This document shows, in pieces, positions 719 through 61,719 of a stretch of DNA of 64,000 nt. The translations under genes were made by a program, and so were the position numbers. Position 1 is the stretch's first letter; the number at the start of each line of letters is the position of its first letter. Under the pieces are notes generated by a model that worked only from the letters and a program-made list of their open reading frames with translations, was not told the origin of the DNA and ran no database searches. The stretch spans positions 65,104-129,103 of the forward strand of contig DASZRD010000007.1 of the NCBI GenBank assembly GCA_035549255.1. The letters are read 5' to 3'. Source of the DNA: Minisyncoccota bacterium. GTDB lineage: Bacteria > Patescibacteriota > Minisyncoccia > Phycocordibacterales > SBAW01.

Positions 719-1278
719 AACGCGGCGAAGAGGTACACGATCGTAAAGATGAATATCCAGATGAGGTCGAGGAAGTGCCAGAAGAGCGCCAGGCAGGTCA
801 ATTTGCGGTTGGTACTTTCGTTAAGCCCGCGCACGGCGACGTGCGCCATGACGACCAGCATCCAGACAGTGCCGAAGAGGACGTGGAGCCCGTGCGTGCC
901 GACGAGCGTGAAGAAGGATGACAACGCGGCGGAGGCGTTAGGGCCGTTATTTTCATATATGAGTTTGCCGAACTCGGATACTTCCATCCCGAGGAACGAG
1001 AACCCGAGGGCGAGCGTCGCCGCCAGGAATGCAAGCGTGAGCAGCCGATTATTCGCGCGCGCGAAGAGGAGCGAGAGGCCGATGGTGAGGCTCGAGGTTA
1101 AAAGGAGCATCGTTTCGGTGAGTACAAACGGGATATCAAGAAAGTCCCCTACCCCTGCGGCGCCGAAGGTGGCGCCGCGCAGCACCGCAAAGGTGGCGAA
1201 GAGGCCTGCGAAGAGGACGCAATCGCTCATGAGGTAGAGCCAGAAGCCGAAGGTTACTTTTGGAGTTTCTGCGTTCAT
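715..1278 (-). CDS. cyoC: cytochrome o ubiquinol oxidase subunit III
   Basis: 187 aa polytopic membrane protein with clear similarity to heme-copper oxidase subunit III (CyoC). Overlaps cyoB and cyoD. Confidence 0.9.
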
Positions 1279-3230
1279 GACTGTTTATAGGACGCTTCGA
1301 TGCGTGCCACCTCGCTGGAGGGGATCACATGCTCGATATGAGTACTCAGCGAGCGCGCAATAATGATAGCGATAATAATCGGCAGCGAAATCCCCGCAAG
1401 CCACCAAATGTGCCAGATCATAGCGAAGCCGAATGCTCCTGCGACGACGGCGATGACGAACCCGAGCGGCGTGTCGGTCGGCATGTGGATGTCTTCATAG
1501 GAGCCCTTCTGGAAAGATGTTCCTTCTTTTTTCATAATCCAGAACGCATCGCGGCCCGCCACCTGCGGAATATGCGCGAAGTTGTACGGCGGCGGGGGCG
1601 AGTGCGTCGCCCACTCGAGCGTGCGGCCATTCCACGGGTCGCCGCCCGCCGCGAGGCGCTCGCGATTGCGGATGCTCACGATCAGCTGGATGACCTGGAA
1701 GAGCACCCCGAGCCCGATGATGCAGGCACCGAGCGCGGCAACCACGAGCAAGGGGTGCCAGCCCATGGAGGGGTCGATCGTGTCGAGGCGGCGCGTCATG
1801 CCCATGATGCCGAGCGCGTAAAGCGGCATGAAGGCCGTGAGGAAGCCGATCACCCACGCCCAGAACGCGCGCTTGCCCCACGCTTCGTCGAGCCTGAAGC
1901 CCGCGAACTTGGGGAACCAGTACGAGATTCCCGCGAAGAAGCCGAAGAGCACGCCGCCGATCACCATGTTATGGAAGTGCGCCACGAGGAACTCGCTGTT
2001 GTGGAGCTCGAAGTCGGCGCCCGGCACCGCCATGAGCACGCCGGTCATGCCGCCGATGATGAAGGTCGAGATGAACCCCATGAACCAGAGCATCGGGGTC
2101 GAGAAGATGATCCTTCCCCGGAACATCGTGAAGAGCCAGTTGAATACCTTGACACCCGTCGGGATCGCGATCACCATCGTCATGATGCCGAAGAAAGCGT
2201 TTACGTCCGCACCCGCGCCCATAGTGAAGAAGTGGTGCACCCATACGACAAAGGAGAAGAAGACGATGCACATCGTCGCGATGACCATCGAGGTATAGCC
2301 GAAGAGCCGCTTTTGCGAGAATACGGGCACGAGCTCGGAGAAGAGGCCGAAGGCGGGCAGTATCAATATATAGACCTCCGGGTGGCCCCAGGCCCAGATG
2401 AGGTTGACGTACATCATGACGTTGCCGCCGAGGTCGGTCGTAAAGAAGTGCATGCCGAGCAGGCGGTCGAGGCTGAGCTCGCCGAGGGTCACCGTAAGGA
2501 TCGGGAATGCGAACACGACGAGGAGCATGGAGCCCAGAGCGGTCCAGACGAATATCGGCATCTGCATGAGCTTCATCCCCGGCGCGCGCATCTTGAGGAT
2601 GGTCGTGATGAAATTGATCCCGGCCATGAGCGTACCCGCGCCCGCGATCTGGAGCGCCCAGATCCAGTAATCGACGCCGACTCCCGGGCTGTATTGCAGC
2701 TCCGAGAGCGGCGGATATGCGAGCCAGCCGGTCGCGGCGAACTCCCCTGCCACGAGCGAGAAATTGATGAGCATCGCGGCAGCGGCCGTGAGCCAGAAGG
2801 AAACCGAGTTGAGGAATGGGAAGGCCACGTCGCGCGCGCCGATCTGGAGCGGCACCACGAGGTTGAGAAGGCCGAACATCATCGGCATCGCGACGAAGAA
2901 GATCATGATGACGCCATGCGCGGTGAATATCTGCGCGTAATGGTCGGCCGCGAGATAGCCGGTGCCGGGGCCCATACTGATGGCCTGCTGCGCGCGCATC
3001 ATCGCCGCGTCGGCGCCGCCCCGGAAGAGCATGATGAACGCAAGCACGAGGTACATGATACCGATCTTCTTGGCGTCGACGGTGACGATCCACTCGCGAT
3101 AGAGCTTCCCCCACGCCTTGAAGTACGTAATGAGGAGCACGGCGAAGACTCCGCCGCCGACCACCATAAGCTCGGGGATGGTCTCGATCGGCCCGTGTAT
3201 GAAAGATTGAAACGTCAGTAAGCCAAACAT
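1275..3230 (-). CDS. cyoB: cytochrome o ubiquinol oxidase subunit I
   Basis: 651 aa heme-copper oxidase subunit I with the motifs ...[14 protein letters not shown]... and HFHNMVIGG. Confidence 0.93.
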
Positions 3231-3231
3231 A

Positions 3232-4086
3232 TTACATGCGCATGCCGGGCATCGAGCTCATGTCTGTCCCCGGCACGCTCGGGGGCGACATGAATTGCAT
3301 AAGTATTTTATCGTACAGATCGTCGGCCACGCTTGCGTAGGAAAACGGTGCATCGATAGTACCAGGCTGCGCCAGAGATTGATAAGTCGGATAATTGAGC
3401 GCCATGACTCCTTCCTTGGTTTGGGCCACCCACGAGTCGAAGTCGCCCTGCGGCACGGCCGTGGCCTTGAAGCCCATCGAAGCGAAGCCGTCGCCGCTAT
3501 AGTTGGACGAATAGCCGCTATAGGTGCCCGGCGAGGACGCCATAAGGTTAAGCGTCGTTACCATGCCGCTCATGGCATAGATCTGCCCGCCCAATTGCGG
3601 GATCCAAAACGAGTTCATCGGCGCGTCGGCGGTGACCTTGAAGGTGATTGGGGTACCGACCGGGATCGTAAGGCCGCCCACTGTGGCAATCCCCTGCTCA
3701 GGGTAGATAAAGAGCCACTTCCACGGCAGCGCTACCACCTCGATCGTCATGCCCGGCGTATCGGAGGCGATGGGGTTGGGCGGGTTGAGCTCGTGAGTGC
3801 TCGTCCACGTGAGCGCCGCAAGCACCAGCACGATCTCGAGCGGTATCGCCCACCAGACAAGCTCGTCCATCTTGGAGTGCTCCCACTCGGGCATGTACTT
3901 CGCAGACGTGTTGCTCGCGCGGTATTTCCACGCAAAGAAAAAGATAAGGATGTAGACCGGCACCGCCACAATGAGCATAAGCTCAATCGTGTGGAGCATC
4001 AGCCCGCGCTCCGCTGTCCCGATAGGGCCCTGAGGATTGAGCATTACGAAAGTACCGGGCCAGTTCATGCTTTCATCATACCGCAT
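3232..4086 (-). CDS. cyoA: cytochrome o ubiquinol oxidase subunit II
   Basis: 284 aa with N-terminal TM helices plus a periplasmic cupredoxin-like domain lacking the CuA ligands, as in quinol oxidases. First gene of the operon. Confidence 0.88.
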
Positions 4087-15243: not shown

Positions 15244-15278
15244 GTTATGGACATTCTACCATTTTTGTTATGAAAAAG

Positions 15279-15312
15279 AAAAAGGGCCGCTCGCGCGAGG
15301 CGGCGGCCCAAG
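15279..15312 (-). terminator. terminator downstream of tgt
   Basis: Minus-strand GGGCCGCCGCCTCGCGCGAGCGGCCC followed by TTTTTCTTTTTC. Confidence 0.45.
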
Positions 15313-15387
15313 GCTAGGGAGGAAACGCCCAAGGGGGGCATGCGGCGTCATTGCCGCTTCTTCACTATATGTGCACTTCACGAAAGA

Positions 15388-17159: not shown

Positions 17160-17612
17160 ATGCAGATCCCGCTGATCCAGCAAGAAAAAGACTACTATTG
17201 CGGCCCTGCGATCATTGAAATGATTCTCGGCGCGTACGGCAAGAACATAACTCAGGACGAGGCCGCAAAACGCGCGGGTACGACTGAAGCCGTGGGTACT
17301 TCGATAGCCGGGTTAGCGGGCGTACTTGCGCAAGAAAATTTTTCCGTCGATGCGGCAGAAAATCGCAGCGTTGCAGACATTCAGCAAGCCTTACAAAAAG
17401 GCGCCATTGTTATCGTCAATTATACCGAGCCGGTGTGGGAATGGGGGCACTACGCCATCGCCGAGAAAATAGAGAGCGGCATGATAACACTCATTGACCC
17501 GGATTCCCGCACCGGAAAGACGTCCATGCTGATGGAGGAATTCGAGCGCCGGTGGAAAGACCCGCTGTTTACCAAAGCGACCCGCTGGGCTGCGTTCGTG
17601 TCGGAAAAATAA
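17160..17612 (+). CDS. peptidase C39-like domain protein (standalone)
   Basis: 150 aa with a QQEKDYYCGPA motif resembling the C39 catalytic Q/C motif. No linked ABC transporter. Confidence 0.55.
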   Translation: MQIPLIQQEKDYYCGPAIIEMILGAYGKNITQDEAAKRAGTTEAVGTSIAGLAGVLAQENFSVDAAENRSVADIQQALQKGAIVIVNYTEPVWEWGHYAIAEKIESGMITLIDPDSRTGKTSMLMEEFERRWKDPLFTKATRWAAFVSEK

Positions 17613-18731
17613 TTACTGCCCGACACTTGCGGCGCTGGTCGAGATAAAGCCGCCGCTCGCGGGATACGCGCCGAAGACCGACGCGCTCTGATTGAGGTTT
17701 GTCTTGCCCGCGAAGGGCGTCTGCGCATTGAGGAAGATAAGCGCGATGGCGATCATGGCGACAACCGCGCCGCCAATCAGCATGTCGGTAGGCTGTATCT
17801 GGATATGGATAAAGAACGCGAGCGCGAGGCCGACCATGAGCACCACTGCGACGCCGGCAAGCACCCACTCGATTGAGGATGAGGGCTGCGTGTCGCCGCG
17901 CACCAGCTCACGCGCGAAGGAGCTCCATGGCGTGCTGCTGTGCGGTGAGACAGGTGCTGCAGCCGAGGTTTCTACCGGCGCACTTGGCGCGGCCGTAGTC
18001 GGCTCCGCTTGCGCTTCAGAGGTGTCCGCTGCGGCAGGCTGTGCATCGGTTGATGGCGCAGCTTCAGTCTCCGCGCCAGCCACCTGCGCGCCCGCCGGCG
18101 CCGCTTCTGACGCCGCTACCTGCTGCACGCCGCCGGCAGCCGTAGAAACCGACGAGCCCGCTTGTTTCGGCTCGCCGAAATATTGCACGACGTACGTCGC
18201 CGGCGCGCCCTGGTATATGCCTTGCGCCACACCGACGCCGATCTGCGTGTAGACCGGCTTCACGATATTGGCGCGATGGGTCGGCGACGCCATCCATGCA
18301 TTGACGACGTCGGAGGAGTCCTCAAACCGCACCGCGAGGTTCTCGCCCGCCGCCTGGTATGAATAGCCGTATTCGCTGATCCATGTCCACGGCTCCTTCC
18401 CGTCCGGCCCCACATGCGCGAAGTAGCCCTTCGCCGCCATATCCTCGGCCTTGGCTTGCGCGGCGGCGTCGAGATCGGCGTTTTCGGTCAATTGTCCGAC
18501 ATTATTGGTCGCGCGCTCGTCGTTGGTGAGTGCTATGACCTCGCCGGGCAAGACCGCCGCAACAAAATTAAATGCCGACTGCCGCGCGATAAGGTCAGCG
18601 ACGAACACTGCTTCGGAGGTAAGGACTACCGTGAGGAAAAAGAGGAGCCACGGTCGGCGGAGCATATGCGGGCGGTAGACATTGCGCTTGGAGGGTATGA
18701 AATGGTCCTTCAGTTTGCGCAGGAAATCCAT
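17613..18731 (-). CDS. CAP/SCP (PR-1-like) domain protein, membrane-anchored with an Ala/Pro/Thr-rich linker
   Basis: The sequence ...DLDAAAQAKAEDMAAKGYFAHVGPDGKEPWTW...GENLAVRF...AWMASPTHRANI is a CAP domain. An N-terminal TM helix is present. Confidence 0.75.
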   Translation of the reverse strand: MDFLRKLKDHFIPSKRNVYRPHMLRRPWLLFFLTVVLTSEAVFVADLIARQSAFNFVAAVLPGEVIALTNDERATNNVGQLTENADLDAAAQAKAEDMAAKGYFAHVGPDGKEPWTWISEYGYSYQAAGENLAVRFEDSSDVVNAWMASPTHRANIVKPVYTQIGVGVAQGIYQGAPATYVVQYFGEPKQAGSSVSTAAGGVQQVAASEAAPAGAQVAGAETEAAPSTDAQPAAADTSEAQAEPTTAAPSAPVETSAAAPVSPHSSTPWSSFARELVRGDTQPSSSIEWVLAGVAVVLMVGLALAFFIHIQIQPTDMLIGGAVVAMIAIALIFLNAQTPFAGKTNLNQSASVFGAYPASGGFISTSAASVGQ

Positions 18732-18745
18732 GGCATAATTCTAGC

Positions 18746-19549
18746 ATGAAGAAATCAGCCATTTTGGCTCTTTTTGGATTACTTATCCCCCTGTCCCTCC
18801 TGGCTGTGTACCCTGAGACAGCTCAAGGGGCCGGCTTCGCCAAAGAATCGCTCTTTCTCTCGAAGACTCCGGTAACCGAAGGCGACACCGTGCTCATCCA
18901 TACCGTCGTCTCCAACGACACCGGCGTCAATTTCTCCGGCGAGGTCATATTTAAAAACGGCGACGCCAAGATCGGGGGTGTGGCGGTGACCATAGCGGCG
19001 GGCGGCGCCAATGCGGTGTCGGTCTCCTGGAAGCCGGGCGCTGGCACGCACACGGTAACAGCAGAGCTCGACGGCGCCGACGGCGCGGTCGTGGAAAAAG
19101 AATCGGGAGTGTTCGTGATCAACCCCAAGCCACAGCCCGCCTCGCAAGGCGCGACAGAGGATGCGAGCGTCGAATCCTCGCAAGCGATCCAGAATGACAT
19201 CGCGCATTATTCCCCTACTGCGGCCTCTATAGCGCAGCCGGTCTTCTCAACGATAGATTCTGCGCGCAACAAAGCGGCGGACCTCCTCGACCAAGGTACG
19301 CAATGGGCCAGCCAGCAGTCAGGCGGCAAGTCGCCGGGACAAGTGCTCGGCGACGCGACGACGACTGTGTCGCTCAACCCGGTCGGCACCGCGTGGAAGC
19401 TCCTCGCGTCGGTTATCTATTACATCCTCACCTTCCTGCGCTATGTCGTCGGCCACGCGGGGATCTTCTACCCCGTCTTCGTCATCCTGTTCTTCTATAT
19501 ATTGTGGAGGACGTATAAGCGCTTCCGCCGGCCGAGATACAGCGTATAG
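18746..19549 (+). CDS. hypothetical secreted protein with C-terminal TM anchor
   Basis: Signal peptide (MKKSAILALFGLLIPLSLLA) plus a hydrophobic C-terminal segment. No known domain. Confidence 0.45.
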   Translation: MKKSAILALFGLLIPLSLLAVYPETAQGAGFAKESLFLSKTPVTEGDTVLIHTVVSNDTGVNFSGEVIFKNGDAKIGGVAVTIAAGGANAVSVSWKPGAGTHTVTAELDGADGAVVEKESGVFVINPKPQPASQGATEDASVESSQAIQNDIAHYSPTAASIAQPVFSTIDSARNKAADLLDQGTQWASQQSGGKSPGQVLGDATTTVSLNPVGTAWKLLASVIYYILTFLRYVVGHAGIFYPVFVILFFYILWRTYKRFRRPRYSV

Positions 19550-19573
19550 TCTCACCCTTACTCTTTTTCTGTA

Positions 19574-20005
19574 TTAGGCGTTTCGTTTTGCCGAGCGCCA
19601 GTGCCAGACGGCAAGGCTAAAGAGGACGAGCGTCGTCAGTGCCGAGATCGCGCAGTACATGCAGTAAGCATGGATCAAAGTACCTTGGATATAGAACTCG
19701 AAGATAAGCGAGAGCGCGAAGCCGATCGCGGTGTAGCCGAGCGTTGCGACGCTGAGCGTGCGCGAGCGCGGGTCCATCGCAAGGAGCACCATGAGCGCAA
19801 GCATATAGACATAGTAGACAAGCCCGATGTACGCGAGCGGCACGCCGAAGAAGTGCGAATACTGGCTCGTGAGCACGACCTCGCAGCCGCCGATGGCGCA
19901 ACTGGGCACCGCGTTGCTGTAAGCGAAGTATGAGAGGTAGAGCGTGTCGGCAAGCCCGACAAACGTGGCGGCAATAAGGTAAAACGGGGTCAGTAATTGC
20001 TTCAT
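19574..20005 (-). CDS. vitamin K epoxide reductase (VKOR) family protein
   Basis: 143 aa with four TM helices, a CxxC-like AIGGC pair and a CMYC motif, as in VKOR. Confidence 0.7.
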   Translation of the reverse strand: MKQLLTPFYLIAATFVGLADTLYLSYFAYSNAVPSCAIGGCEVVLTSQYSHFFGVPLAYIGLVYYVYMLALMVLLAMDPRSRTLSVATLGYTAIGFALSLIFEFYIQGTLIHAYCMYCAISALTTLVLFSLAVWHWRSAKRNA

Positions 20006-20017
20006 AAAATCACTATA

Positions 20018-20422
20018 TCACTTTCCCCGTTCGCGTTCATCTTCCCGATGGCGCACCTCCGCTTCATCCATGCCGAAGTGATGCGCGACCTCGTGCCAGA
20101 TCGTTTCGCGGATTACCTTGCGTACATTGGCTTCCCCGCCGCCAAATTCCATCGCCTCGTCCTCGATTGGCCATTGATAGAGCGTGATCGTGTCGGGCAA
20201 GACGTTGCCGACGCCGTAATAATCGCCGCGCGCGGTATGCGGAATGCCGCGATAGAGCCCGAGCAGGGTCTCGTTGTCTGCCAGCCCTTCTTCTCTCCGC
20301 ACTTCTTCCGACGGCTCGTCTTCCACAAGAAAAGCAACGTTCTCTACCTTGGAGCGGAATTTTTCCGGAATAGCGTCAGGAAATTCCTCCGCAACCAGCT
20401 TCTCAAACTCCTCGCGAGTCAT
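20018..20422 (-). CDS. metallopeptidase family protein (zincin-like, HExxH)
   Basis: 134 aa with a WHEVAHHFG motif, like the small bacterial 'metallopeptidase family' proteins. Confidence 0.7.
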   Translation of the reverse strand: MTREEFEKLVAEEFPDAIPEKFRSKVENVAFLVEDEPSEEVRREEGLADNETLLGLYRGIPHTARGDYYGVGNVLPDTITLYQWPIEDEAMEFGGGEANVRKVIRETIWHEVAHHFGMDEAEVRHREDERERGK

Positions 20423-20946
20423 TTGAGCAAATCCTTGAACTTCTCCTGTACCTTCTCTACCTTGGGAGCGATGATGACTTGGCAGTAGCCCGCGTCTTTG
20501 TGATTTTCGTAATACTTCTGGTGATAGTCTTCCGCTTTGTAGAAGTTCTTGAGCGGCGCGACGGTCGTGACGATCGGCTTCGTATATTTCTTCGCGATCA
20601 GTTTGATATAGTGCTCGGCCTTCTCCTTTTGTCGTTCGGTCGTATAAAAAATCGCCGAGTGGTACTGCGGGCCGACATCATTGCCCTGCCGGTTAGGCGT
20701 CGTCGGGTCATGCGTCTCGAAGAATACTTGCAGGATTTCCTCAAACGCCAAAAGGTCCGGATGGTACACGATGCGAATGACTTCGATATGCCCCGTGTCG
20801 CCGCCGCAGACTTGCTCATAGGTCGGGTTCGCTACGTGCCCGCCACTGTAGCCTGGCTCGACTGATACGATCCCCTTGAGCATGGTGAAGACCGCCTCCG
20901 TGCACCAGAAGCACCCTCCGCCCAAGACAATCTCCTCAGTATCCAT
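20419..20946 (-). CDS. msrA: peptide-methionine (S)-S-oxide reductase
   Basis: Contains the GGCFWC active site. The start was set at MDTEEIV because the upstream extension overlaps a terminator hairpin. Confidence 0.9.
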   Translation of the reverse strand: MDTEEIVLGGGCFWCTEAVFTMLKGIVSVEPGYSGGHVANPTYEQVCGGDTGHIEVIRIVYHPDLLAFEEILQVFFETHDPTTPNRQGNDVGPQYHSAIFYTTERQKEKAEHYIKLIAKKYTKPIVTTVAPLKNFYKAEDYHQKYYENHKDAGYCQVIIAPKVEKVQEKFKDLLK

Positions 20947-20956
20947 GAGGCAAGTA

Positions 20957-20985
20957 TAGCAAACCCCCGCCTTGGCGGGGGTTTG
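20957..20985 (-). terminator. terminator of the Ig-like protein gene
   Basis: Minus-strand GCAAACCCCCGCC-AAGG-CGGGGGTTTGC followed by TATACTT. Confidence 0.45.
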
Positions 20986-21017
20986 CACTCGCTCAAGAAC
21001 TCACCAATCGCGGATGA

Positions 21018-22247
21018 TTATCTATTGTTCTTATTGCCGAAGTTGAACCAGCTGCCGACGTTGCCGCCCCAGTGGAACCAGCCCCAATGATTGCCGTTAT
21101 TCCCGTTATTGCCAGAACCGTTGTCACCGCCGTGGCCATTGCCGCCTTGAGGCGTAGTGGTGGCCTTCTGCATATTGGCGAAGTTGACGACAGCTGACGT
21201 GTCGGAGGTGCTCAATACAACCTTGGTGTCAGAGCTGGTCTGATTCCAGCCTGTGGGCTCCTGCTCCTCGACGAAATAGGTCCCCGCTGCGAGGTTGCTG
21301 AAGGCATAATGGCCGTTGGCGTCGGTCGTCGCCGTCGCAGTTATGGGCGCGTTGTAACCCTTGCCGCTGTGGAGCCATACCGTCCAACCCGCGAGGCCCG
21401 GCTCGCTAGCGTCCTGCTTGTCGTTGCCGTTCTGGTCGTTATAGAACGTGCCGCTGATCGAGTAGGTACCCGGCGTCGTAGTCGGCGTTGAAGAGGTTGC
21501 TACCACCGTCAGTACGCTGCCTGAAGCGTTGCACGAGCTGGTCGCCGCAGCGTTATTGGCATCGCCCGAGTAGACAGCCTGCCAATAATACGTTCCTGGT
21601 GTGTTGAACTGGTACGATGCCGAGCTCGGGATCGAGCCGTTCATTACCGTCTGGGAGCCGGCATTGAGGTACGGCGCGGTGCACGCCGTATTGGAGTAGA
21701 CGTTGTACTGCACGCTGCCGCCCGCGGTCGTCGACGCGCCCAAGAAGGACGGCATCGCGTAGACGTAGCTGCCCGCCTGCACGCTGCTGTTAGAAAGCGA
21801 GAGCGAAAGCGTCGGCGCATACTGGGTCGCCTGCACAGCGACGCATGCGCCATTCGTCGTGCCGAAGTTCGTATCGCCGCTATAATGCACGAGATACGAA
21901 AGGCCGCCCGCCGGGAGTGTCGTCGTCGCCGACTGCGCCATGCCGCCCGCGAGCGCCACGCCCGTCTGCGTCAGCGGCGAGCCGGCGCAGCTCGTGCCGT
22001 TGTAGAGGCTGAAGTCGACCGTGCCGGTCGGCACCGTCGTCGTGGAGGAGGAGGCGATCGCGACGCTTGCCTGGAGCGGCGTGCCGACCATCGCCGACGT
22101 GATCGAGGCGTTGCTGCCGTTGACCACGGTCGTGGTCACGGTAGGCGCCGTGTCGGCCCTCGCCAGCGCGCTGATGCCAAGCAGCGCGGCAAGTGCGGCC
22201 GCCATGCCCGCAAGCGCGAACGGGAGCTTAGTTCGCATAGTACTCAT
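21018..22247 (-). CDS. secreted cell-surface protein with Ig-like domains and a C-terminal SdrD B-like/Cna-B-type domain
   Basis: Signal peptide, Thr/Ser-rich repeats, a ...TFYNDQNGNDKQDASEPGLAGWTVWL...GTYFVEEQEPTGW motif and a Gly/Asn-rich tail. Confidence 0.6.
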   Translation of the reverse strand: MSTMRTKLPFALAGMAAALAALLGISALARADTAPTVTTTVVNGSNASITSAMVGTPLQASVAIASSSTTTVPTGTVDFSLYNGTSCAGSPLTQTGVALAGGMAQSATTTLPAGGLSYLVHYSGDTNFGTTNGACVAVQATQYAPTLSLSLSNSSVQAGSYVYAMPSFLGASTTAGGSVQYNVYSNTACTAPYLNAGSQTVMNGSIPSSASYQFNTPGTYYWQAVYSGDANNAAATSSCNASGSVLTVVATSSTPTTTPGTYSISGTFYNDQNGNDKQDASEPGLAGWTVWLHSGKGYNAPITATATTDANGHYAFSNLAAGTYFVEEQEPTGWNQTSSDTKVVLSTSDTSAVVNFANMQKATTTPQGGNGHGGDNGSGNNGNNGNHWGWFHWGGNVGSWFNFGNKNNR

Positions 22248-23785: not shown

Positions 23786-24028
23786 ATGTTTTGGATCTAC
23801 GTTCTAAAATCCGAAAAATTCGATATCTCTTACGTGGGGTCCGCTGAAAATATAGAGCGTCGTCTTATCCAGCATAATAATGGAGTATCGAAGTTCACAA
23901 AGAAATATAGACCGTGGAAAGTAATCTATTCTGAGTCTTATACTACTCGTTCTGATGCTCTACAAAGAGAAAAATTCCTCAAATCAAAGAGTGGCAGAAA
24001 ATTTCTTAAAAGTGTAGTCTTTAAGTGA
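23786..24028 (+). CDS. GIY-YIG nuclease family protein (UPF0213 / YhbQ-YazA-like, COG2827)
   Basis: 80 aa (MFWIYVLKSEKFDISYVGSAENIERRLIQHNNG...KYRPWKVIY...REKFLKS). GC is about 35% against roughly 60% around it. Confidence 0.8.
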   Translation: MFWIYVLKSEKFDISYVGSAENIERRLIQHNNGVSKFTKKYRPWKVIYSESYTTRSDALQREKFLKSKSGRKFLKSVVFK

Positions 24029-45626: not shown

Positions 45627-46955
45627 TTAGTTACCCGGGTCATACTGAGCGACGCAGCTTGCCGCCTTGGCATTGCAGCCGGGGCATGTCCAGTCGCTGT
45701 AAGGAGACTGCCCAGCGGCAAGACGTTGCTGAGAAAGATTATAAGCGGCCTGCGCATTGCAATTGGGGTCGTTACAGGATGTTGCCGAAGAACAGGTACC
45801 CGAATGAAGACTCGAGTTGTTCCAATTCCCCTGCAGTATCTGGAAGGTACCACACGCGGTTGATCCTTTTGGACTTGGAATGTAAGGCTGGCCGCTGCTC
45901 TCGGTCATCGCGATACAGGACATCGTGTTCGCCTGTGCGCTGGTATAGCCGATACTCTGCAGAAAGCTTACGCTGCAAGCGGAATCTCCCGTCGGACATT
46001 GCACCCCGCCGCTCGCAGCCGCTCCGGCGACGTAGCTCGTACAGTAGTATTGGCCATCCGAACCTTGATAACCGCCCGATTTGCACTGGCTAGGGTCGCT
46101 TATTGCGACCGGTGTTGGAGAAGTGACTACAGTCTGCGGAGGCGGCAAAATTTCTCCGATAAGATCCGAGATGGTCTTGGTATTATCGGGTGTCGTGCCG
46201 GGGCGTTGCGAGGGGTCGGTGCATGTCACCTGATTCCATCCTTTCCAATAGTCTTCACTCAGTATGGAATGAAGGACGGTCTCGATGATGAGATACGAGC
46301 CGAGCGTAATGACGAACCCAAAGATCACGTTGCGGAAAATGCTCTTGGCTCTAGAAATATTTTCCGCCCCTCCCATTGCGGAAGTGAAGTAGAGCACGCC
46401 TGCGTAGGCGAAGAGCGCCATAGCAATCGGTATCGAGACCTCGATAAGAAAGTTGATGATGCGGTTGAGTAGATCGACTATGTTGCAGGCATTGCAGCTC
46501 GTTGCAGCTTCGTTATACGCCGCAGTGCCGGGTGTGAGGCCTGTTGTGACGCCACACGGTACGAGCCCACTCGATGAGATTGAACCACTAGATCCCAATG
46601 TGTCAGCATAAGAAGAATTAGAAGACGGTGAATTTGATGACGATCCGCCGCTAGTAATTGTGAACGAGGAAGAACAAGTAGTGGTCCCTCCTGGGCCCCA
46701 GAATGTGCCGATAATTTGTGTCGACTGAGTCGGATAAAGCATTGTTGACCCACTAGGGCTCACTGATCCAACACCAGTAATAAAGCCAGCCGAAGTGCTC
46801 GTACTCTGCCATACCAGCGTAAAAGCATTCCCCTGATTAATAATGGCCTCTTGAGGGGTCAGGCTGCACGAGGGCAACGTGTCAGCATGAACGGCGTGTG
46901 GTACACCGATTATAAAAAGAAGCGCAAGTCCTCCCAGCAAGACCCGTACCTTCAT
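45627..46955 (-). CDS. secreted T4SS-pilin-like (TrbC/VirB2-like) domain fused to a C-terminal lysozyme-like/lytic-transglycosylase-like domain
   Basis: The start was set at MKVRVLLGG, a signal peptide, because the longer ORF would overlap tRNA-Tyr. The central two-TM pilin-like segment (...NIVDLLNRIINFLIEVSIPIAMALFAYAGVLYF...) is paralogous to the 58385-59842 genes. The C-terminus has ...MTESSGQP...GTFQIL. Confidence 0.55.
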   Translation of the reverse strand: MKVRVLLGGLALLFIIGVPHAVHADTLPSCSLTPQEAIINQGNAFTLVWQSTSTSAGFITGVGSVSPSGSTMLYPTQSTQIIGTFWGPGGTTTCSSSFTITSGGSSSNSPSSNSSYADTLGSSGSISSSGLVPCGVTTGLTPGTAAYNEAATSCNACNIVDLLNRIINFLIEVSIPIAMALFAYAGVLYFTSAMGGAENISRAKSIFRNVIFGFVITLGSYLIIETVLHSILSEDYWKGWNQVTCTDPSQRPGTTPDNTKTISDLIGEILPPPQTVVTSPTPVAISDPSQCKSGGYQGSDGQYYCTSYVAGAAASGGVQCPTGDSACSVSFLQSIGYTSAQANTMSCIAMTESSGQPYIPSPKGSTACGTFQILQGNWNNSSLHSGTCSSATSCNDPNCNAQAAYNLSQQRLAAGQSPYSDWTCPGCNAKAASCVAQYDPGN

Positions 46956-46989
46956 ATACGCTTTATAGTACCATCTGTTTTTCCGCTCC

Positions 46990-47030
46990 TGACAAGAGGC
47001 TGCAAAACGTGTAGAGTATGGAGTGTTCGC
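46990..47030 (+). promoter_or_regulatory. tRNA-Tyr promoter; its -35 hexamer region is shared palindromically with the divergent promoter of the 46955 gene
   Basis: The plus strand has TGACAA, 17 nt, TAGAGT. The minus strand has TTGTCA, about 17 nt, TACTAT. Confidence 0.4.
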
Positions 47031-47037
47031 CACCTAT

Positions 47038-56338: not shown

Positions 56339-57508
56339 ATGATCTCATTCGCACTAAACGCAGCAGGGATGATGACCGCCCTCGCGATCCTCTTCCTACT
56401 GACTGTCTATCTACTCGCAAAATTGAATCTCTTCTTCACCATCCTCGAAGAAGGAACCGCAGTAGCGATCATGAGGAGCGCCGGCGGCTTCGATCACTTC
56501 ATCATGAAGTGGAACGGGCACTACCTCAACGACCCGCGCCAGCCGTGGTACAACCCGGGACCTTCCGCATGGGAAGTGCTCGGGGTACATCCGGATAATG
56601 CGGACCAGCCGCCTTCCATCTATCGCTTCCCCGTCTACTGGCTGGCGCCCGTGTGGCGGATGCTGGAGCACTTCGGCATCTACTACTACGGCCTGTACCC
56701 GTTCAAGCAGGTGCACTCGTACACCTTTGACTGGACGGAGCAGCGGATCAAGGAAGGAACCAACGACTATGAGCCGTGGCACCGCGTCGCGCGGACCTCG
56801 TTCATCTACGTCAAGCGGTTCTCTTACTGGGTCCGCCTGCTGGCAGCCGAGGACGAAGACAACATTCCTCTCGACCTCGATTACCTACTCACCGTCATGG
56901 TGAATAACCCGTACAAAGCACTCTTCAGCATCGGCGACTGGCTCGCCCGCACCATCGCGGACGCCAACAACCGGGCCAAGACCTTTACGGGCGCAAGCAC
57001 CTTCGAGGATATGACCAAGGAGCGCACGAAGAGGGATCAAGCCCAGGTCAACGAGTTCTCCAGCAATGTGCTCCAGATAAACGACAACGTCTGGACGGAG
57101 CACGGACTTGGGGGGACTCGCGAGAGCTATGGCGTCACGGTGGCGGCAGTCTCGCTCGTCGAGGTCGCACTCGCCGGCGAGAACCGCCAGGTGCTCGCTG
57201 CGGCTACGACTGCTAAGATCGTGGCCAAGAAGAATGCCGAAGCGGCAGTCGAGACGGCCGAAGGTGCGGCAAAGGCAGTGAAGATTGCTGCCGATGCGGA
57301 AAAATATGCCGTCGACACCGTGTACTCGGAGATCGAGCGCCACGGAGCCGAAGGCATTGCCATCCGCCAACTTGATTCGATCGTGAAGGCCGGCGACAAA
57401 GGCAACCAGATCATCTGGGCTAATAACCCGATCCTAGATGCCGTACGGGAGTTCATGCGGGGCTTCCGTACTACTCCTCCCTCTCCGCCTTCCGCAACAA
57501 ACTCATAA
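56339..57508 (+). CDS. divergent SPFH/band-7 (stomatin/flotillin-like) membrane protein
   Basis: N-terminal TM helix, then ...FTILEEGTAVAIMRSAGG... (SPFH-like β start) and a C-terminal coiled Ala/Lys/Glu-rich segment (...IVAKKNAEAAVETAEGAAKAVKIAADAEKYAV...). Confidence 0.4.
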   Translation: MISFALNAAGMMTALAILFLLTVYLLAKLNLFFTILEEGTAVAIMRSAGGFDHFIMKWNGHYLNDPRQPWYNPGPSAWEVLGVHPDNADQPPSIYRFPVYWLAPVWRMLEHFGIYYYGLYPFKQVHSYTFDWTEQRIKEGTNDYEPWHRVARTSFIYVKRFSYWVRLLAAEDEDNIPLDLDYLLTVMVNNPYKALFSIGDWLARTIADANNRAKTFTGASTFEDMTKERTKRDQAQVNEFSSNVLQINDNVWTEHGLGGTRESYGVTVAAVSLVEVALAGENRQVLAAATTAKIVAKKNAEAAVETAEGAAKAVKIAADAEKYAVDTVYSEIERHGAEGIAIRQLDSIVKAGDKGNQIIWANNPILDAVREFMRGFRTTPPSPPSATNS

Positions 57509-57520
57509 GGAGAAATAATC

Positions 57521-58315
57521 ATGTGGTTGTGGCTATGGGTGCCGATCATCCTTGCTTTGTTGGGAGTCGGTACTCTAGTCGCGCTCATACAGGCCAAAGA
57601 GGCTAGTGAGCGCGATGCTCGGAGGAAACTTGCCCAAAAGGAAAAGTCCCCTGCCGAAAAAGACCAGAAGAAAAAGGCCGATTCTCCAGGCATCTGGCAA
57701 AGGCTGCAAGGCCCTGCCGTCTTCTTCCTCGTGCTTACCACGCTGTGGTTCGTTATCTGGGAGTGGATGCCAAACGCGCCGATCTTCACCACAATTGAAG
57801 GTCGGTTCCACATCGGCTTCTACTACTTCCTGGTCGTACTTCTGGGCCTGATCGACATCACCCAGAAGGACAGGAGGACCAGGCGGACGGCCCTGATCAT
57901 GATGTTCGCCATCTTCTGCATCGTGGGCGTGCGCAGTAGTATGCTCTTCCATACCAGCGGAGTCGGGGCAGCGGGATTGCAGGGCTTCACCGCTCCCGTG
58001 CAGCCCGCAGTCTACTCCCCCGGCGAGGAAGTGATCTCCACCGGTCCAAGGTGCGACAACGTTACGCGGACCGTGAAGTTCGAGGCCGGTTTCCACCCCG
58101 GCCACGCGGGCTGCAACGCCAGTTGGACCATCAGCGATGAGAGCCCGACTAATTGCCTTATCCCCATAGACGGGGACGGGCAGCCGGCGTTGGGCTACGC
58201 TGACGGAGAACCGATTGAGGTCTGCAAGGGCGGAGAAAATGCACTTGTCGGCCACAGTATCTCCGGGTGGCGAATGACGAGCGAGACATTGCTCGAACTT
58301 CGTTACCATTCGTGA
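57521..58315 (+). CDS. polytopic membrane protein with a Cys-containing C-terminal domain (possible NfeD-like partner of the SPFH protein)
   Basis: 264 aa with four predicted TM helices. Co-oriented with the SPFH gene, separated by 13 nt. Confidence 0.4.
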   Translation: MWLWLWVPIILALLGVGTLVALIQAKEASERDARRKLAQKEKSPAEKDQKKKADSPGIWQRLQGPAVFFLVLTTLWFVIWEWMPNAPIFTTIEGRFHIGFYYFLVVLLGLIDITQKDRRTRRTALIMMFAIFCIVGVRSSMLFHTSGVGAAGLQGFTAPVQPAVYSPGEEVISTGPRCDNVTRTVKFEAGFHPGHAGCNASWTISDESPTNCLIPIDGDGQPALGYADGEPIEVCKGGENALVGHSISGWRMTSETLLELRYHS

Positions 58316-58329
58316 TCAACGATCTGTCA

Positions 58330-58372
58330 GTACATCAAAAAAGCGCGACCCTTCGGGGCCGCGCTTTTATTT
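58330..58372. terminator. bidirectional intrinsic terminator
   Basis: AAAAAAGCGCGACCC-TTCG-GGGCCGCGCTTTTATTTTTAT. Confidence 0.55.
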
Positions 58373-58384
58373 TTATATACTTAT

Positions 58385-58717
58385 TTAATGCAGATACTGC
58401 GTCGCCTGGGGCCCCAGCGTATTAGCGACGATATTGAGTATGGCATAGGCGGAAACCATGATAAACATGCCAAGTATCCCGTAGAGCATATGCCGCTTGC
58501 CCTTGTCGCGTTCACCCGCCTCGCTCGAGAGCGCCATCAGAAACTCGACGATGCCGTAGACGAAGAATAGCAGCCCCGCAGCAAAGACAAGCGCAATAAT
58601 GGGATTTATCACAACGCGGGTAAGGCACGCTGCGAACTGCGTTGCACCCTGGAGGCATGCGCCCGAAGCATTGCCGAATGTGCTTACCGTAGCCGCAGCG
58701 GATTGCGTGACGTCCAT
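58385..58717 (-). CDS. T4SS-pilin-like (TrbC/VirB2-like) small membrane protein, paralog 1
   Basis: 110 aa with two TM helices and a shared pattern ...L(I/V)xFxxGxVxFIMxxGE...(W/Y)GI(L/I).... Confidence 0.6.
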   Translation of the reverse strand: MDVTQSAAATVSTFGNASGACLQGATQFAACLTRVVINPIIALVFAAGLLFFVYGIVEFLMALSSEAGERDKGKRHMLYGILGMFIMVSAYAILNIVANTLGPQATQYLH

Positions 58718-58734
58718 AGGACTTTGGGAACCAA

Positions 58735-59025
58735 TTACTGATTGAGCTCGACTTGCGGAGGAGGGAGGGCTGCGCCGCTGCCGACGCCAAGCGTGTTCTG
58801 CACCAGGCGGATAATGCCCCAGATCGATACCATAACGAAGAGCGCGGTAATACCGGCGATCATGACATTGCGCCCTTGAGCGTGGCTTTCTCCGGCGCTC
58901 ATGATGTACTGTACAAGCCCCCAGAAAAAGACAACGAGCGCAAACGCTATGAGAAGCGGGATGAGCGAGTTGAGCGTATTGCCTGCAAAATTGATGAGGC
59001 CCTGAAGATTATTGCCGGTAGCCAT
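58735..59025 (-). CDS. T4SS-pilin-like small membrane protein, paralog 2
   Basis: 96 aa, NSLIPLLIAFALVVFFWGLVQYIMSAGESHAQGRNVMIAGITALFVMVSIWGIIRL. Confidence 0.6.
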   Translation of the reverse strand: MATGNNLQGLINFAGNTLNSLIPLLIAFALVVFFWGLVQYIMSAGESHAQGRNVMIAGITALFVMVSIWGIIRLVQNTLGVGSGAALPPPQVELNQ

Positions 59026-59100
59026 AGAAAGATTAATTAACTATATAATAACTCTAGCAGGCCACCTTATGTGCACAAGGAAGCCATGTGGATAGCATTT

Positions 59101-59367
59101 CTATGTGCCCATTGCGCCCAGGAGCGTATTTTGGAGTATGGCGAGTATACCCCAGATAGAGAAGAGCACGAAAAGCGCGATAATCCCCCACACCATAGCG
59201 TCGCGTTCAGCGGCTCCGCCGACGCTCTCGCCCGATTTCATAATAAAGCGCACCGCTCCCCACATGAATACTACGATCGCAAATGCTACGAGGACCGGTA
59301 TCGTGAGATTTATGATGCCGATCGCATACGAGACGACATCGGCAAAAGTTGAATTGTTTGAGAGCAT
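59101..59367 (-). CDS. T4SS-pilin-like small membrane protein, paralog 3
   Basis: 88 aa, IINLTIPVLVAFAIVVFMWGAVRFIMKSGESVGGAAERDAMVWGIIALFVLFSIWGIL. Confidence 0.6.
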   Translation of the reverse strand: MLSNNSTFADVVSYAIGIINLTIPVLVAFAIVVFMWGAVRFIMKSGESVGGAAERDAMVWGIIALFVLFSIWGILAILQNTLLGAMGT

Positions 59368-59368
59368 G

Positions 59369-59842
59369 TTAACAAGAATTGATGCCCTGGACGCCTAAGT
59401 TGCGAAGCGTATTGATGATGACGCTTGCGATAAGAGAGGCGCCGAGGAAAATCGCGATGCCAATAATGACGTGGTAGAAGTTGGTCTTGGCTTCGCCGAG
59501 CTCGCCTGGGTTCCCCTGCGCAATGATGAATTTGAAGCCCGCCCAGATGATAAAGAGTATGGCGACGGGTATGCCAATTACCATAACGGCATTGAGGAGT
59601 GCAAGCATGAGCTGGCACACGCTGGTGATGCTACCGAGCGGGTTCTCGAGGCAATTGCTACCGCTGGGACAGGAAGAATTAGAAGCATTCTGGCTAACAA
59701 TAGTATTGTTCCCCTGCTGGACTATGGGGGTATCGACTGCGAGATGCGTTCCTGCTGCTGTGCTCACCGCGGGGATCAGCATCACGAGAAGGCTCACGAG
59801 CGTGAGAATGACATCCCGATATATGACAAAAAATCTTTTCAT
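59369..59842 (-). CDS. T4SS-pilin-like protein with a longer N-terminal extracellular region, paralog 4
   Basis: 157 aa. The C-terminal half has the same two-TM pilin-like pattern. A signal or TM segment lies at the N-terminus. Confidence 0.55.
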   Translation of the reverse strand: MKRFFVIYRDVILTLVSLLVMLIPAVSTAAGTHLAVDTPIVQQGNNTIVSQNASNSSCPSGSNCLENPLGSITSVCQLMLALLNAVMVIGIPVAILFIIWAGFKFIIAQGNPGELGEAKTNFYHVIIGIAIFLGASLIASVIINTLRNLGVQGINSC

Positions 59843-59845
59843 TTA

Positions 59846-61144
59846 TTATTGTGTCGGGAGAAGATGTGAAAGCGATTGGCCTGCTTCCTCGATCGCCGTC
59901 GCAGGCGTCGAGGCTCCGCTCACCACCGATTCTATCATGGTCTCGAAGATGCTATCAGAATCGGCGGGCGAAGGATCAAGCCAGCTCTGCGAGATGAGCG
60001 CCGACTGCACGAAGACGGCCGCGGCCGCGGAACCCGAGGTATCGACAGCAACGTCGCGGCGCACCGGCGGGAGGCTGAGCGCGCCGGCGATAAGGCCGAC
60101 CGCGCTCTTGGCCGAGAGCTTCTGCGCGATCGCGAGCGCGCCCTGCACGTTCTTGGCGCTGCGCGCGATCGCGAGGCCTACGACCCGGCCGAAGGTTACC
60201 TGCGAGGAGTTGCCGGCGATCTGCGGCAGAGGCGCGACGCCGAAGCGCAAGTTGGGGTTCGCTTGCGCCAAGCTGCCGTACTCGCTCGCGAAGCCGAAAT
60301 ACATGGCGACGTCTCCCGCGGCAAAGGCGTCCGATGCCGACGGGAGCGAGCGATTCCATGAATAGCTGGTCTTGGTGGGATTGGCGAACTCGGTATAGAA
60401 GCGCAGCGCTGACTCGGCGGGGTTGTCGGTCTGATTCTGCGCCCCGAGGCTAAGCGTCACCACCGGAGCGCCCCCGCTGTTGCGGGCAACGATCGTATCG
60501 CCCACTTGCATGAATAGCGCCGCGAGTATGGCCTTGGCGTCGGGAATATTCCCCCACTCGCCGAGCGCAACGGCGCTTCTCTGCACCGCCGAGCGGTTGT
60601 CGAGCGCGGTGATCTTGGGCGCGAGCGTCAAAAGGTCGTTCCAGGCCGAGGGCGGCGAGGCCACTCCCGCCGAAGCGAAGAGGTCGCGGTTGTAGTACAT
60701 GACCAAGGGGTCGATGGTAAACGGCAGCGCGAGCGTGCCTTGCGAAGTGAGAAAGACGTCGCCCGCATCCACGAACGAGGATTGGTACGCGCCCTGGGAG
60801 ACAATGCTGTAGGGTATGGTGAGCACTTTGTCCGAGAATGACAGCGTGTCTTCGCCGGGCATGAGGAAGAGGTCGGGGCCCGTGCCGGCAGCCATCGCGT
60901 TGATAAGGTCCTGCTCGTAGGTAGCCGGGCTCTTCTGAACGTAACTTACACTTTGAAAAGATTTGTCTTGCCCCTCGAGCGTATCAAGCAGGCCTTGCAT
61001 GGTCTGGCGGTCAAGCGTGCCCCAGATGACGACCGGGCCGACGCCTTTGGTACCCAGCACGCCGCCGAACGCGGCAAAGACGCCGATGCCGATAAGAATA
61101 AGCGAAGAAAATATTCCAAGAACGATTATCTGGAACGTGGACAT
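59846..61144 (-). CDS. membrane-anchored extracellular solute-binding protein (ABC-type SBP family 1-like), no adjacent permease or ATPase
   Basis: 432 aa with an N-terminal TM helix and an SBP_bac_1-like fold signature (...PDLFLMPGEDTLSF...). Confidence 0.6.
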   Translation of the reverse strand: MSTFQIIVLGIFSSLILIGIGVFAAFGGVLGTKGVGPVVIWGTLDRQTMQGLLDTLEGQDKSFQSVSYVQKSPATYEQDLINAMAAGTGPDLFLMPGEDTLSFSDKVLTIPYSIVSQGAYQSSFVDAGDVFLTSQGTLALPFTIDPLVMYYNRDLFASAGVASPPSAWNDLLTLAPKITALDNRSAVQRSAVALGEWGNIPDAKAILAALFMQVGDTIVARNSGGAPVVTLSLGAQNQTDNPAESALRFYTEFANPTKTSYSWNRSLPSASDAFAAGDVAMYFGFASEYGSLAQANPNLRFGVAPLPQIAGNSSQVTFGRVVGLAIARSAKNVQGALAIAQKLSAKSAVGLIAGALSLPPVRRDVAVDTSGSAAAAVFVQSALISQSWLDPSPADSDSIFETMIESVVSGASTPATAIEEAGQSLSHLLPTQ

Positions 61145-61173: not shown

Positions 61174-61719
61174 TCAGGCTTTTTTGCGAACGACAAATCC
61201 CCAATGATAGCCGCCGGCATGGAGCGCGCCCAGCGTGTCGAAGCCGTGCGACTCGAGGAGCTTCTTCCCGGCCTGGGCATCGAGCACATGGTCGGAGTGC
61301 GGCCCCATGCCGCCGAAGGAGCCTTGCCAGTCGATGACGACGCCGCGGCCGGTCTTCTTCATGATGCGGCGCATCTCGGCCAGCGCCTCGCCGCGCTCCT
61401 TGAGCATGAACAGCACGTTGGCGAGTATGACCATGTCGAAGTGGTTCTCGGGGAGCGGCGTGCCGCCGATCGCCTCGATATCGCCGCGGATAACCTCGAC
61501 GTTGGCGAGCCCCTCGGCGCTCGCGAGATTCTTGATCCTCGGCAGCAGGTCGCGATTGATATCAACCGCCCAGACCACCCCGCCTTCGCCCACTTCGCGG
61601 GCCGCCGCGCGGGTAAAAAAGCCCGACCCGGCGCCCAAGTCGGCTACCTGCATGCCCTCGTGAATGCCCGCCGCGCGCAGCGCGGCGGCCGGATGCAAAA
61701 AAGCGGTGGATTCCACCAC
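61174..61719 (-). CDS. class I SAM-dependent methyltransferase
   Basis: Motif I VADLGAGSGFF, with further methyltransferase motifs. Confidence 0.8.
   Translation of the reverse strand: MVESTAFLHPAAALRAAGIHEGMQVADLGAGSGFFTRAAAREVGEGGVVWAVDINRDLLPRIKNLASAEGLANVEVIRGDIEAIGGTPLPENHFDMVILANVLFMLKERGEALAEMRRIMKKTGRGVVIDWQGSFGGMGPHSDHVLDAQAGKKLLESHGFDTLGALHAGGYHWGFVVRKKA

Follow-up and report, generated by a model that had tools for sequence, protein, structure and literature searches.

The locus described here raises the question of what a row of four small pilin-like genes might do in company with a gene for a solute-binding protein (SBP). The genes lie on the minus strand, between positions 58385 and 61144 of a stretch of 64,000 nucleotides (hereafter the window, to which all coordinates refer) from contig DASZRD010000007.1 of a Minisyncoccota bacterium (assembly GCA_035549255.1). 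The original prediction, made from the letters of this stretch, had regarded them as type IV secretion system (T4SS) pilins and had seen in their diversification a sign of antigenic or functional variation. We find that these genes, together with one for a small methyltransferase, form an operon that recurs as a module in a wide range of Patescibacteria; the best explanation of its setting is that it is chromosomal and vertically inherited, and belongs to Patescibacteria of the Paceibacteria type. The reading that we favour, to which we would assign a probability of roughly 55%, is that the module specifies a heteromeric surface structure of the VirB2 type, which would be assembled by a T4SS encoded elsewhere in the genome and would work with a dedicated binding protein.

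As originally described, the four genes are co-directional and encode proteins of 88 to 157 aa with two transmembrane segments each. The open reading frames (ORFs) of pilin 1 (157 aa, 59369..59842), pilin 2 (88 aa, 59101..59367), pilin 3 (96 aa, 58735..59025) and pilin 4 (110 aa, 58385..58717) all lie on the minus strand, and the hydropathy profile of each product contains two hydrophobic segments (residues 8–45 and 56–86 in pilin 2, 27–67 and 76–102 in pilin 4) joined by a short loop with K/R/E/D residues. The assignment to the T4SS pilin/TrbC family was likewise borne out by searches with hidden Markov models (HMMs), in which all four proteins matched Pfam family PF18895 (T4SS_pilin, gathering cut-off 26.6 bits) and pilin 1 also matched PF04956 (TrbC/VirB2, cut-off 27.9 bits). 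On the PF18895 profile, pilin 1 scored 40.7 bits, pilin 4 30.0 bits, pilin 2 26.6 bits, which equals the cut-off, and pilin 3 24.9 bits, just under it, with a core up to 47% identical to pilin 2. Each gene matched independently, with E-values from 2.5e-10 to 2.2e-5, and four such matches in neighbouring genes are, judged by these scores, far beyond chance. The score of pilin 1 on PF04956 (24.4 bits) falls under the cut-off of that family. Among the aligned relatives and paralogs, however, 43/49 match PF04956 (best E 3.2e-10) and 49/49 match PF18895; the link to VirB2/TrbC therefore rests on more than one borderline score. Pilin 3 is recognized with an E-value of 3e-19 by our own family HMM, which was built in part from pilins 2–4 of the window, while NCBIfam returns weak matches of the small proteins to a pilin-like family of a Mycoplasma integrative and conjugative element, and pilin 1 carries the product name 'pilin' at NCBI. 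Pairwise identity of the other pilins to pilin 1 is 19–23%, and the conserved core proposed at the outset (FxWGxVxFIM..GES...WGII) fits pilins 2 and 3 well but pilins 1 and 4 only loosely. Together, these profile matches support the membership of the four small proteins in the VirB2/TrbC pilin superfamily (Pfam T4SS_pilin).

The N-terminus of pilin 1 is a typical Sec signal, with a KR-rich start, a hydrophobic core and an STA-A site, followed by a putatively extracellular stretch, an NPLG motif and a two-helix VirB2-like hairpin with cysteines at positions 76 and 157. Its AlphaFold (AF2) model agrees with the pilin hairpin anticipated originally: a signal helix (residues 2–28) is separated by a disordered stretch from a helical hairpin (75–107 and 112–148), with a mean predicted local distance difference test score (pLDDT) of 75.5 overall and 86–91 in the hairpin. 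The modelled fold is thus compatible with a pilin hairpin, yet it is not diagnostic. Pilins 2 and 4 are likewise predicted two-transmembrane hairpins, the latter with two cysteines, at positions 21 and 31, in its N-terminal tail. The window also encodes a fifth pilin domain, in a 468-aa protein (45627–47033, minus strand) with a hydrophobic segment at its N-terminus, a lysozyme-like SLT_3/SLT domain (37.7 bits) at its C-terminus and, besides these, a Cys/Ser-rich region and a T4SS_pilin domain (22.5 bits). A VirB2-like hairpin would here be fused to a VirB1-like cell-wall hydrolase; the gene is flanked by tRNA genes and by a gene for a 197-aa protein without family match, and no T4SS ATPase lies nearby.

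The operon is transcribed from 61719 to 58385 on the minus strand, in the order methyltransferase, SBP, pilin 1, pilin 2, pilin 3, pilin 4, terminator. The array had been described as followed by an anchored SBP; an SBP with a transmembrane anchor does adjoin it, but in transcription the SBP precedes the pilins. The first gene of the conserved module (61174..61719) encodes a small, cytoplasmic, class I S-adenosylmethionine (SAM)-dependent methyltransferase of 181 aa (Methyltransf_31/11/25, E 2.6e-20), whose closest solved relative is 3dh0, an uncharacterized SAM methyltransferase (E 7e-19). It is followed by the SBP gene (59846..61144, 432 aa), whose stop codon lies 3 nt ahead of the start of pilin 1. 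From the methyltransferase to pilin 4 the gaps measure 29, 3, 1, 75 and 17 nt, so that the earlier remark that there is almost no intergenic space is right for the gaps of 3, 1 and 17 nt but not for the 75-nt spacer between pilins 2 and 3. The operon ends at an intrinsic terminator (58337..58368, minus strand) with a 13-bp GC-rich stem and a U run; its RNA fold has an energy of −27.9 kcal/mol (z = −6.4 against shuffles). A generic promoter/terminator scan picked up neither this terminator nor the conserved spacer element discussed below, both of which were established by other means. Two genes on the plus strand converge on the operon (56339–58315) and encode a 389-aa SPFH/Band-7-like protein (24.4 bits) and a membrane protein of 264 aa without family match; genes of similar size occupy this position in 6/6 annotated relatives, with poorly conserved sequence.

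The linkage between SBP, pilins and methyltransferase was followed across genomes with our own HMMs for the three families, searched against six-frame ORFs of all fetched loci. The same module was found in four further NCBI/ENA/JGI genomes, reached through homologues of pilin 1 or of the SBP, as well as in many species representatives and metagenome contigs. A pilin gene lies directly 3′ of the SBP gene in 22/22 distinct Patescibacteria genome loci (SBP >215 bits), over a range of SBP identity from 88% down to 25%; for the distant loci L018 and L025, the adjacent pilin was confirmed by Pfam PF18895 (41.3 and 35.2 bits, respectively). By contrast, none of the 36 non-Patescibacteria SBP loci that served as negative control (SBP <55 bits) has a pilin neighbour, and the methyltransferase orthologue is absent from non-Patescibacteria SBP loci as well. 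The metagenome set comprised 80 contigs recovered with a diverse SBP alignment, 67 of them with enough downstream sequence; a pilin gene occurs within 350 nt downstream of the SBP gene in 66 of these 67, and 62 pass a strict 150-nt criterion. An orthologue of the methyltransferase (166–312 bits) was detected at 24/25 evaluable Patescibacteria genome loci and 55/58 metagenome loci, either directly upstream of the SBP or ~1.1–2.7 kb downstream of the SBP–pilin pair.

Alternatively, the array might be an ordinary part of a T4SS to which the SBP and the methyltransferase are joined merely by inherited gene order, the SBP serving an ATP-binding cassette (ABC) importer encoded elsewhere. This would be in keeping with the normal sugar-binding fold of the SBP, and some of the conservation is indeed merely inherited, since gyrA, rbfA, infB and clpB are syntenic among the close relatives. 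The neighbourhood of the distant group is, however, completely different (SMC, ComM, an HTH_25 protein and a GT2 glycosyltransferase), and the SBP–pilin adjacency is kept there at SBP identities of 25–31%. The trio persists amid changed surroundings, and inherited gene order alone is therefore no explanation. The spacing of the genes also argues against it, as start and stop codons are 1–3 nt apart or, in relatives, overlap by 4 nt; so does the observation that SBP relatives outside Patescibacteria never stand beside pilins, and that the methyltransferase shifts its position yet remains in the module. We consider this alternative quite improbable. On the evidence of gene order, the SBP is no incidental neighbour: over a wide clade, these pilins have no other partner as constant.

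The relationship among the four pilins themselves was assessed in nine genomes with four-gene arrays (SBP identity 53–88%). The best cross-genome match is at the same array position for 36/36 pilins, and mean identity is 44–62% at the same position as against 16–40% between paralogs. In comparison with the closest genome (L011), ratios of non-synonymous to synonymous substitution rates (dN/dS, Nei–Gojobori) are 0.135 for pilin 1, 0.057 for pilin 2, 0.007 for pilin 3 and 0.044 for pilin 4, next to 0.090 for the SBP, 0.073 for IF-2 and 0.138 for RbfA; these are rough values, dS being ~1 or higher for several genes. Taken gene-wide, the pilins show no excess of dN/dS over the housekeeping genes in this comparison. 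Pilin 3, the most conserved subunit and a candidate for the major structural one, is essentially identical to its L011 orthologue at the protein level (rounded aa identity 1.00, dN 0.005) at a dS of 0.71.

These results bear on the proposal that the copies serve antigenic or host-range variation, as suggested for Patescibacteria pilin arrays in general (PMC12102498), or antigenic or functional variation, as suggested for this array in the original prediction, in which case the paralogs would be interchangeable and rapidly diversifying. Low identity between paralogs would fit this proposal, as would the analogy with Bartonella and Anaplasma, whose tandem, divergent VirB2 copies gave rise to an antigenic variation model (cited in PMC12102498), and pilin 1 does vary, both in length and in sequence, in its extracellular N-terminal part. 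Fixed positions and low dN/dS are, however, the opposite of what an antigenic variation array should display, and copy number is mostly four (19/40 metagenome loci) or five (8/40). For this locus the proposal is largely refuted, and we hold it to be very improbable. Judged by these patterns of identity and substitution, the four pilins are old, non-redundant, position-specific orthologous groups in fixed order and under strong constraint, and the fixed four-subunit composition argues for a defined hetero-polymer rather than for variation. Array structure changes with distance: close relatives have the SBP and 4–6 tandem pilins, whereas most of the distant ones (SBP 25–31%) have the SBP and a single pilin, with an array of 6–8 pilins set apart from this pair by 2–8 kb of unrelated genes. 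The SBP-adjacent pilin of the distant loci obtains scores close together from the position-specific HMMs, leaning to the pilin 2/3 type rather than to pilin 1. In the distant arrays (L017, L018, L019, L021, L022, L024 and L025; for example L018 16742–19542), all of the 6–8 pilins bear signal peptides, and the arrays are preceded on the opposite strand by a protein of 500–650 aa without Pfam match and by a GT2 glycosyltransferase.

The nature of the binding protein is indicated by several lines of evidence. The SBP matches SBP_bac_8 (77.7 bits, E 1.7e-21) and SBP_bac_1 (73.8 bits, E 3.1e-20), and in its AF2 model (pLDDT 87, predicted template modelling score 0.85) an N-terminal transmembrane helix (residues 3–26) is followed by a type II periplasmic-binding fold of the MalE/UgpB type. 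The top Foldseek matches in the PDB are malto-, manno- and cyclodextrin-binding, that is, oligosaccharide-binding, proteins (E 5e-22, TM-score 0.66–0.74), and the best PDB sequence match is the manno-oligosaccharide binder 4r9f. Across orthologues of 24–88% identity, 46 residues are invariant, many of them aromatic, including W41, Y76, Y150, W168, Y250, Y261, W263 and W388. Profiles and model alike point to a genuine type II binding protein. The absence of an ABC permease or ATPase in the vicinity, noted from the outset, was corroborated: the only ABC ATPase (LSGG) signature in the 64-kb window is that of UvrA, and the annotation of six genomes within 10 kb of the module includes neither ABC_tran nor BPD_transp families. 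The transmembrane helix of the SBP is conserved as well as the globular part. In distant orthologues (L017–L026), the anchor (MSTFQIIVLG...FGG) is replaced by a short hydrophobic signal ending in G-C, lipoprotein-like in appearance, and ~24 residues are inserted after residue 113. It looks as if the family keeps its membrane tethering while the means change. Contact between SBP and pilins within the membrane, through the SBP helix, was considered and dropped, since the distant orthologues appear to carry the lipoprotein-type signal instead.

Two further conserved features suggest how the pilins may be built and expressed. Among pilin 1 orthologues, Cys76, located just ahead of the first hairpin helix, is present in 43/46 and Cys157, at the extreme C-terminus, in 42/46; the usual distance between them is 81 residues, and cysteine is lacking altogether in three orthologues, so that the pair co-varies. 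With both ends of the hairpin outside the cell, the two positions would come close to each other, which leads us to predict a Cys76–Cys157 disulfide stapling the hairpin ends. A homologue of vitamin K epoxide reductase (VKOR), a disulfide-generating enzyme, is encoded in the window at 19574–20005.

The second feature is a promoter-like element in the spacer between pilins 2 and 3 (59051..59094, minus strand), a spacer that varies from 70 to 90 nt across loci. It consists of TATCCACA (59087–59094), CTTGTG (59074–59079) and an extended −10 motif, TGCTAGAGT (59051–59059). In an alignment of 26 loci, both TATCCACA and TGnTAnAnT show no variation and lie 27–28 nt apart, while the intervening sequence is variable. 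The TATCCACA site is the sole copy in the 64-kb window, and the 8-mer occurs within the array in 51/59 loci, as compared with 11 occurrences in 1.46 Mb elsewhere (0.0075 per kb). Hairpins in the spacer had seemed by eye to covary; RNAalifold found no consensus pair in the 26 sequences, and a DNA-level element is preferred. We read it as a putative internal promoter that would drive pilins 3 and 4, preceded by a site for a regulator. Since TATCCACA corresponds to 8/9 positions of the DnaA box TTATCCACA, the preceding base being C, A, T or G and the match reaching the full 9/9 in some loci, DnaA is a candidate for the factor that binds there; another regulator is possible.

Our favoured reading, a heteromeric VirB2-type structure, would imply the following sequence of events. 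As helical hairpins, the pilins would insert in the single membrane so that both ends face outward and the short charged loop inward. Pilin 1 would enter through Sec and have its signal peptide cleaved, and the Cys76–Cys157 disulfide would then tie its ends, a covalent closure analogous to the head-to-tail cyclization of VirB2 and TrbC. The extraction of the pilins and their polymerization into a heteromeric surface filament or conduit would be the work of a monoderm-type T4SS whose genes (VirB4, VirB6, PrgI and others) would lie elsewhere in the genome. The major subunit is probably pilin 3, in view of its almost complete sequence conservation and of a conserved putative promoter of its own. 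The SBP, presumably of the oligosaccharide/glycerophosphodiester type and translationally coupled to pilin 1, would serve the structure as its ligand-binding component, by recognizing a glycan or by capturing a small molecule, in either case from the host. Assembly by a T4SS is the most economical assumption because of homology and of the data from Saccharibacteria. Host attachment, the role ascribed to such arrays in the original prediction, is a possibility drawn from the literature.

A number of observations weigh against this reading. For the model of pilin 1, Foldseek retrieved nothing significant from the PDB (best E 3.8), and a sequence-profile search of the PDB yielded NuoK alone (E 0.6); neither search returned a solved pilin. 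Pilin 3 sits 1.7 bits beneath the PF18895 cut-off, and pilins 2–4 are without signal peptides. The filament, the ligand of the SBP and its contact with the pilins are all putative; the distant SBPs have what looks like a lipoprotein-type signal and no transmembrane helix, so that an interaction, if there is one, must be independent of this helix. Nor are T4SS partners found nearby. Machinery was sought in Pfam annotation within 10 kb of the module in six related genomes, ~14 kb of additional contig, ten selected proteins of the window and 43 large ORFs from 13 more distant loci. VirB4, VirB6, VirB3/PrgI and VirD4 were detected neither among the window proteins scanned nor in the ~14 kb more of contig, and none of them recurs within 10 kb of the module in the other loci examined (for the ORFs of the distant loci, among the 25 families matched most often, out of 50). 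The VirB4 and VirB6 partners for which the original prediction advised a search were thus not recovered near the module; the array sits between housekeeping genes, outside any T4SS cluster, with VirB4 and VirB6 not within tens of kb. VirB4 is present in most Paceibacteria genomes, including several Adlerbacteria (PMC12102498 Table S1), but L009, a related Adlerbacteria draft that carries the same operon, is listed there as VirB4-negative, the draft being incomplete at 540 kb.

The lack of T4SS genes near the module leads to the main rival explanation, namely that the module is a membrane device independent of any T4SS. The four hairpins would then form a fixed hetero-oligomer, a pore or a docking platform, to which the SBP delivers its ligand. 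This would represent a new SBP-dependent uptake or sensing system, with the methyltransferase acting on the imported molecule. Such a device would account for the fixed set and order of subunits under strong purifying selection, for the co-conservation of the methyltransferase and for an SBP without ABC partner nearby; it would also fit the coupling of SBP and pilin, which is more constant than any link to a T4SS gene, as well as the lack of a T4SS ATPase near the module in the loci examined and the listing of a carrier genome (L009) without VirB4. It is less easily reconciled with the clear homology to TrbC/VirB2 pilins, or with the presence of the same family inside the T4SS cluster of Southlakia epibionticum, together with which it is essential (PMC10633639). 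Moreover, the 6–8 pilin copies of the distant relatives would suit a variable-subunit filament better than a fixed pore, and the module encodes no energizing component. On balance, we deem a T4SS-independent device unlikely.

It is tempting to extend the proposal of a heteromeric VirB2-type structure further, although we do so very tentatively and think it improbable as a whole. The module may be a clade-wide acquisition apparatus of Parcubacteria/Paceibacteria, in which a filament or conduit made of four dedicated subunits would touch the host cell and the SBP, at the base of this structure, would take up a glycan, glycerophosphodiester or lipid head-group derived from the host; the methyltransferase would modify the cargo, and the DnaA-box-like promoter element would tie expression of the major subunits to the cell cycle. 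In solved conjugative pili, there is one phospholipid per subunit. If true, T4SS-type pilins would be engaged in the scavenging of nutrients, and the binding protein would become a defining component of the apparatus. A large fraction of uncultured bacteria are Patescibacteria, which rely on host cells, and the question is how they take what they need. The T4SS with its pilin series is essential in the sole species tested, its function being open (PMC10633639, PMC12857230). The present locus offers handles on this problem, namely a soluble binding-protein domain for ligand screening, a predicted disulfide closure and a conserved promoter element; should the binding protein truly work with the pilins, its ligand would indicate the purpose of the structure.

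Some other features of the window deserve mention. A complete operon for a cytochrome bo3-type quinol oxidase (COX2, COX1, COX3, COX4_pro and a UbiA-family heme O synthase) occupies positions 3–4086 on the minus strand and continues in L147 (9187–13567), with an F-type ATP synthase operon nearby; this is unusual, as Patescibacteria are generally described as devoid of a respiratory chain (PMC10633639). A cluster predicted to encode surface or secreted proteins (17160–22247) contains a stand-alone Peptidase_C39-like protein (150 aa), a CAP-domain protein with a transmembrane tail, Big_3_5 and SdrD_B/SpaA-type proteins and the VKOR homologue mentioned above, and a 1144-aa SpaA/SdrD-like protein is encoded just outside the window (L147 14267–17701). 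The uvrB–tgt intergenic region holds an unexpected Rfam match to RF00519 (suhB/mmgR, an alphaproteobacterial small RNA family) at 15270–15346 on the minus strand (57.5 bits, gathering score 41). Finally, an 80-aa ORF beside tRNA-Gln (23786–24028, plus strand) has a GC content of 0.35–0.37 at all codon positions, against a third-position GC of ~0.75 in its neighbours; by eye its product looks like a GIY-YIG nuclease, possibly a recent acquisition.

Tandem arrays of VirB2-like pilins in Patescibacteria have already been published, and the core of the original prediction is in this respect a rediscovery. Quinonero-Coronel et al. (2025) reported 441 such arrays, of 2–11 genes and with a mean identity of 25%, in 383 Patescibacteria assemblies (PMC12102498), and Wang et al. 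(2023) described an essential series of six pilins, SEML1_0014–0019, inside the T4SS cluster of S. epibionticum (PMC10633639); a 2025 review regards Patescibacterial T4SSs as unique among monoderms (PMC12857230). The link between SBP and pilins in Patescibacteria was found in no paper by our literature search, whose incomplete coverage makes this weak evidence of novelty. The words 'solute' and 'substrate-binding' do not occur in the main text of PMC12102498, nor 'solute-binding' and 'substrate-binding' in that of PMC10633639, in whose supplement the matches all lie outside its T4SS cluster. The methyltransferase–SBP–pilin architecture, the fixed subunit set, the cysteine pair and the promoter element appear to be new to the literature. 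The published arrays (PMC12102498, PMC10633639) and the present one have in common the Pfam family, the tandem layout, the monoderm Patescibacteria host and a low identity between copies (~25% there, 16–40% here). The present array differs from them in lying outside a T4SS cluster and in being headed by a tethered SBP and a methyltransferase, and its copies are fixed orthologous groups under purifying selection. The VirB2 rows of Bartonella and Anaplasma likewise have multiple divergent copies in line, whereas the copies here are ancient, position-specific and strongly constrained.

With VirB2 of Agrobacterium and TrbC of RP4, which belong to diderms and to PF04956, the pilins share the two-helix membrane hairpin with a short loop and, in the case of pilin 1, the signal peptide. 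Pilins 2–4 differ from them in having no signal peptide, and the host is here a monoderm, with no adjacent virB operon. VirB2 and TrbC are cyclized head to tail through a peptide bond; the conserved cysteine pair would predict closure by a disulfide instead. The closest parallels to the binding protein are PrgZ and TraC, the pheromone-binding lipoproteins of pCF10 and pAD1, and ChvE, the sugar-binding protein of Agrobacterium that signals to VirA. In these cases too, a tethered or periplasmic protein of the SBP fold is tied functionally to a T4SS rather than to an ABC operon of its own. PrgZ is a peptide-binding protein of the SBP_bac_5 family that works with the Opp permease, while the gene for ChvE lies in a sugar ABC operon and its product acts via a sensor kinase; neither of the two is translationally coupled to a pilin gene, unlike the SBP of the module described here.

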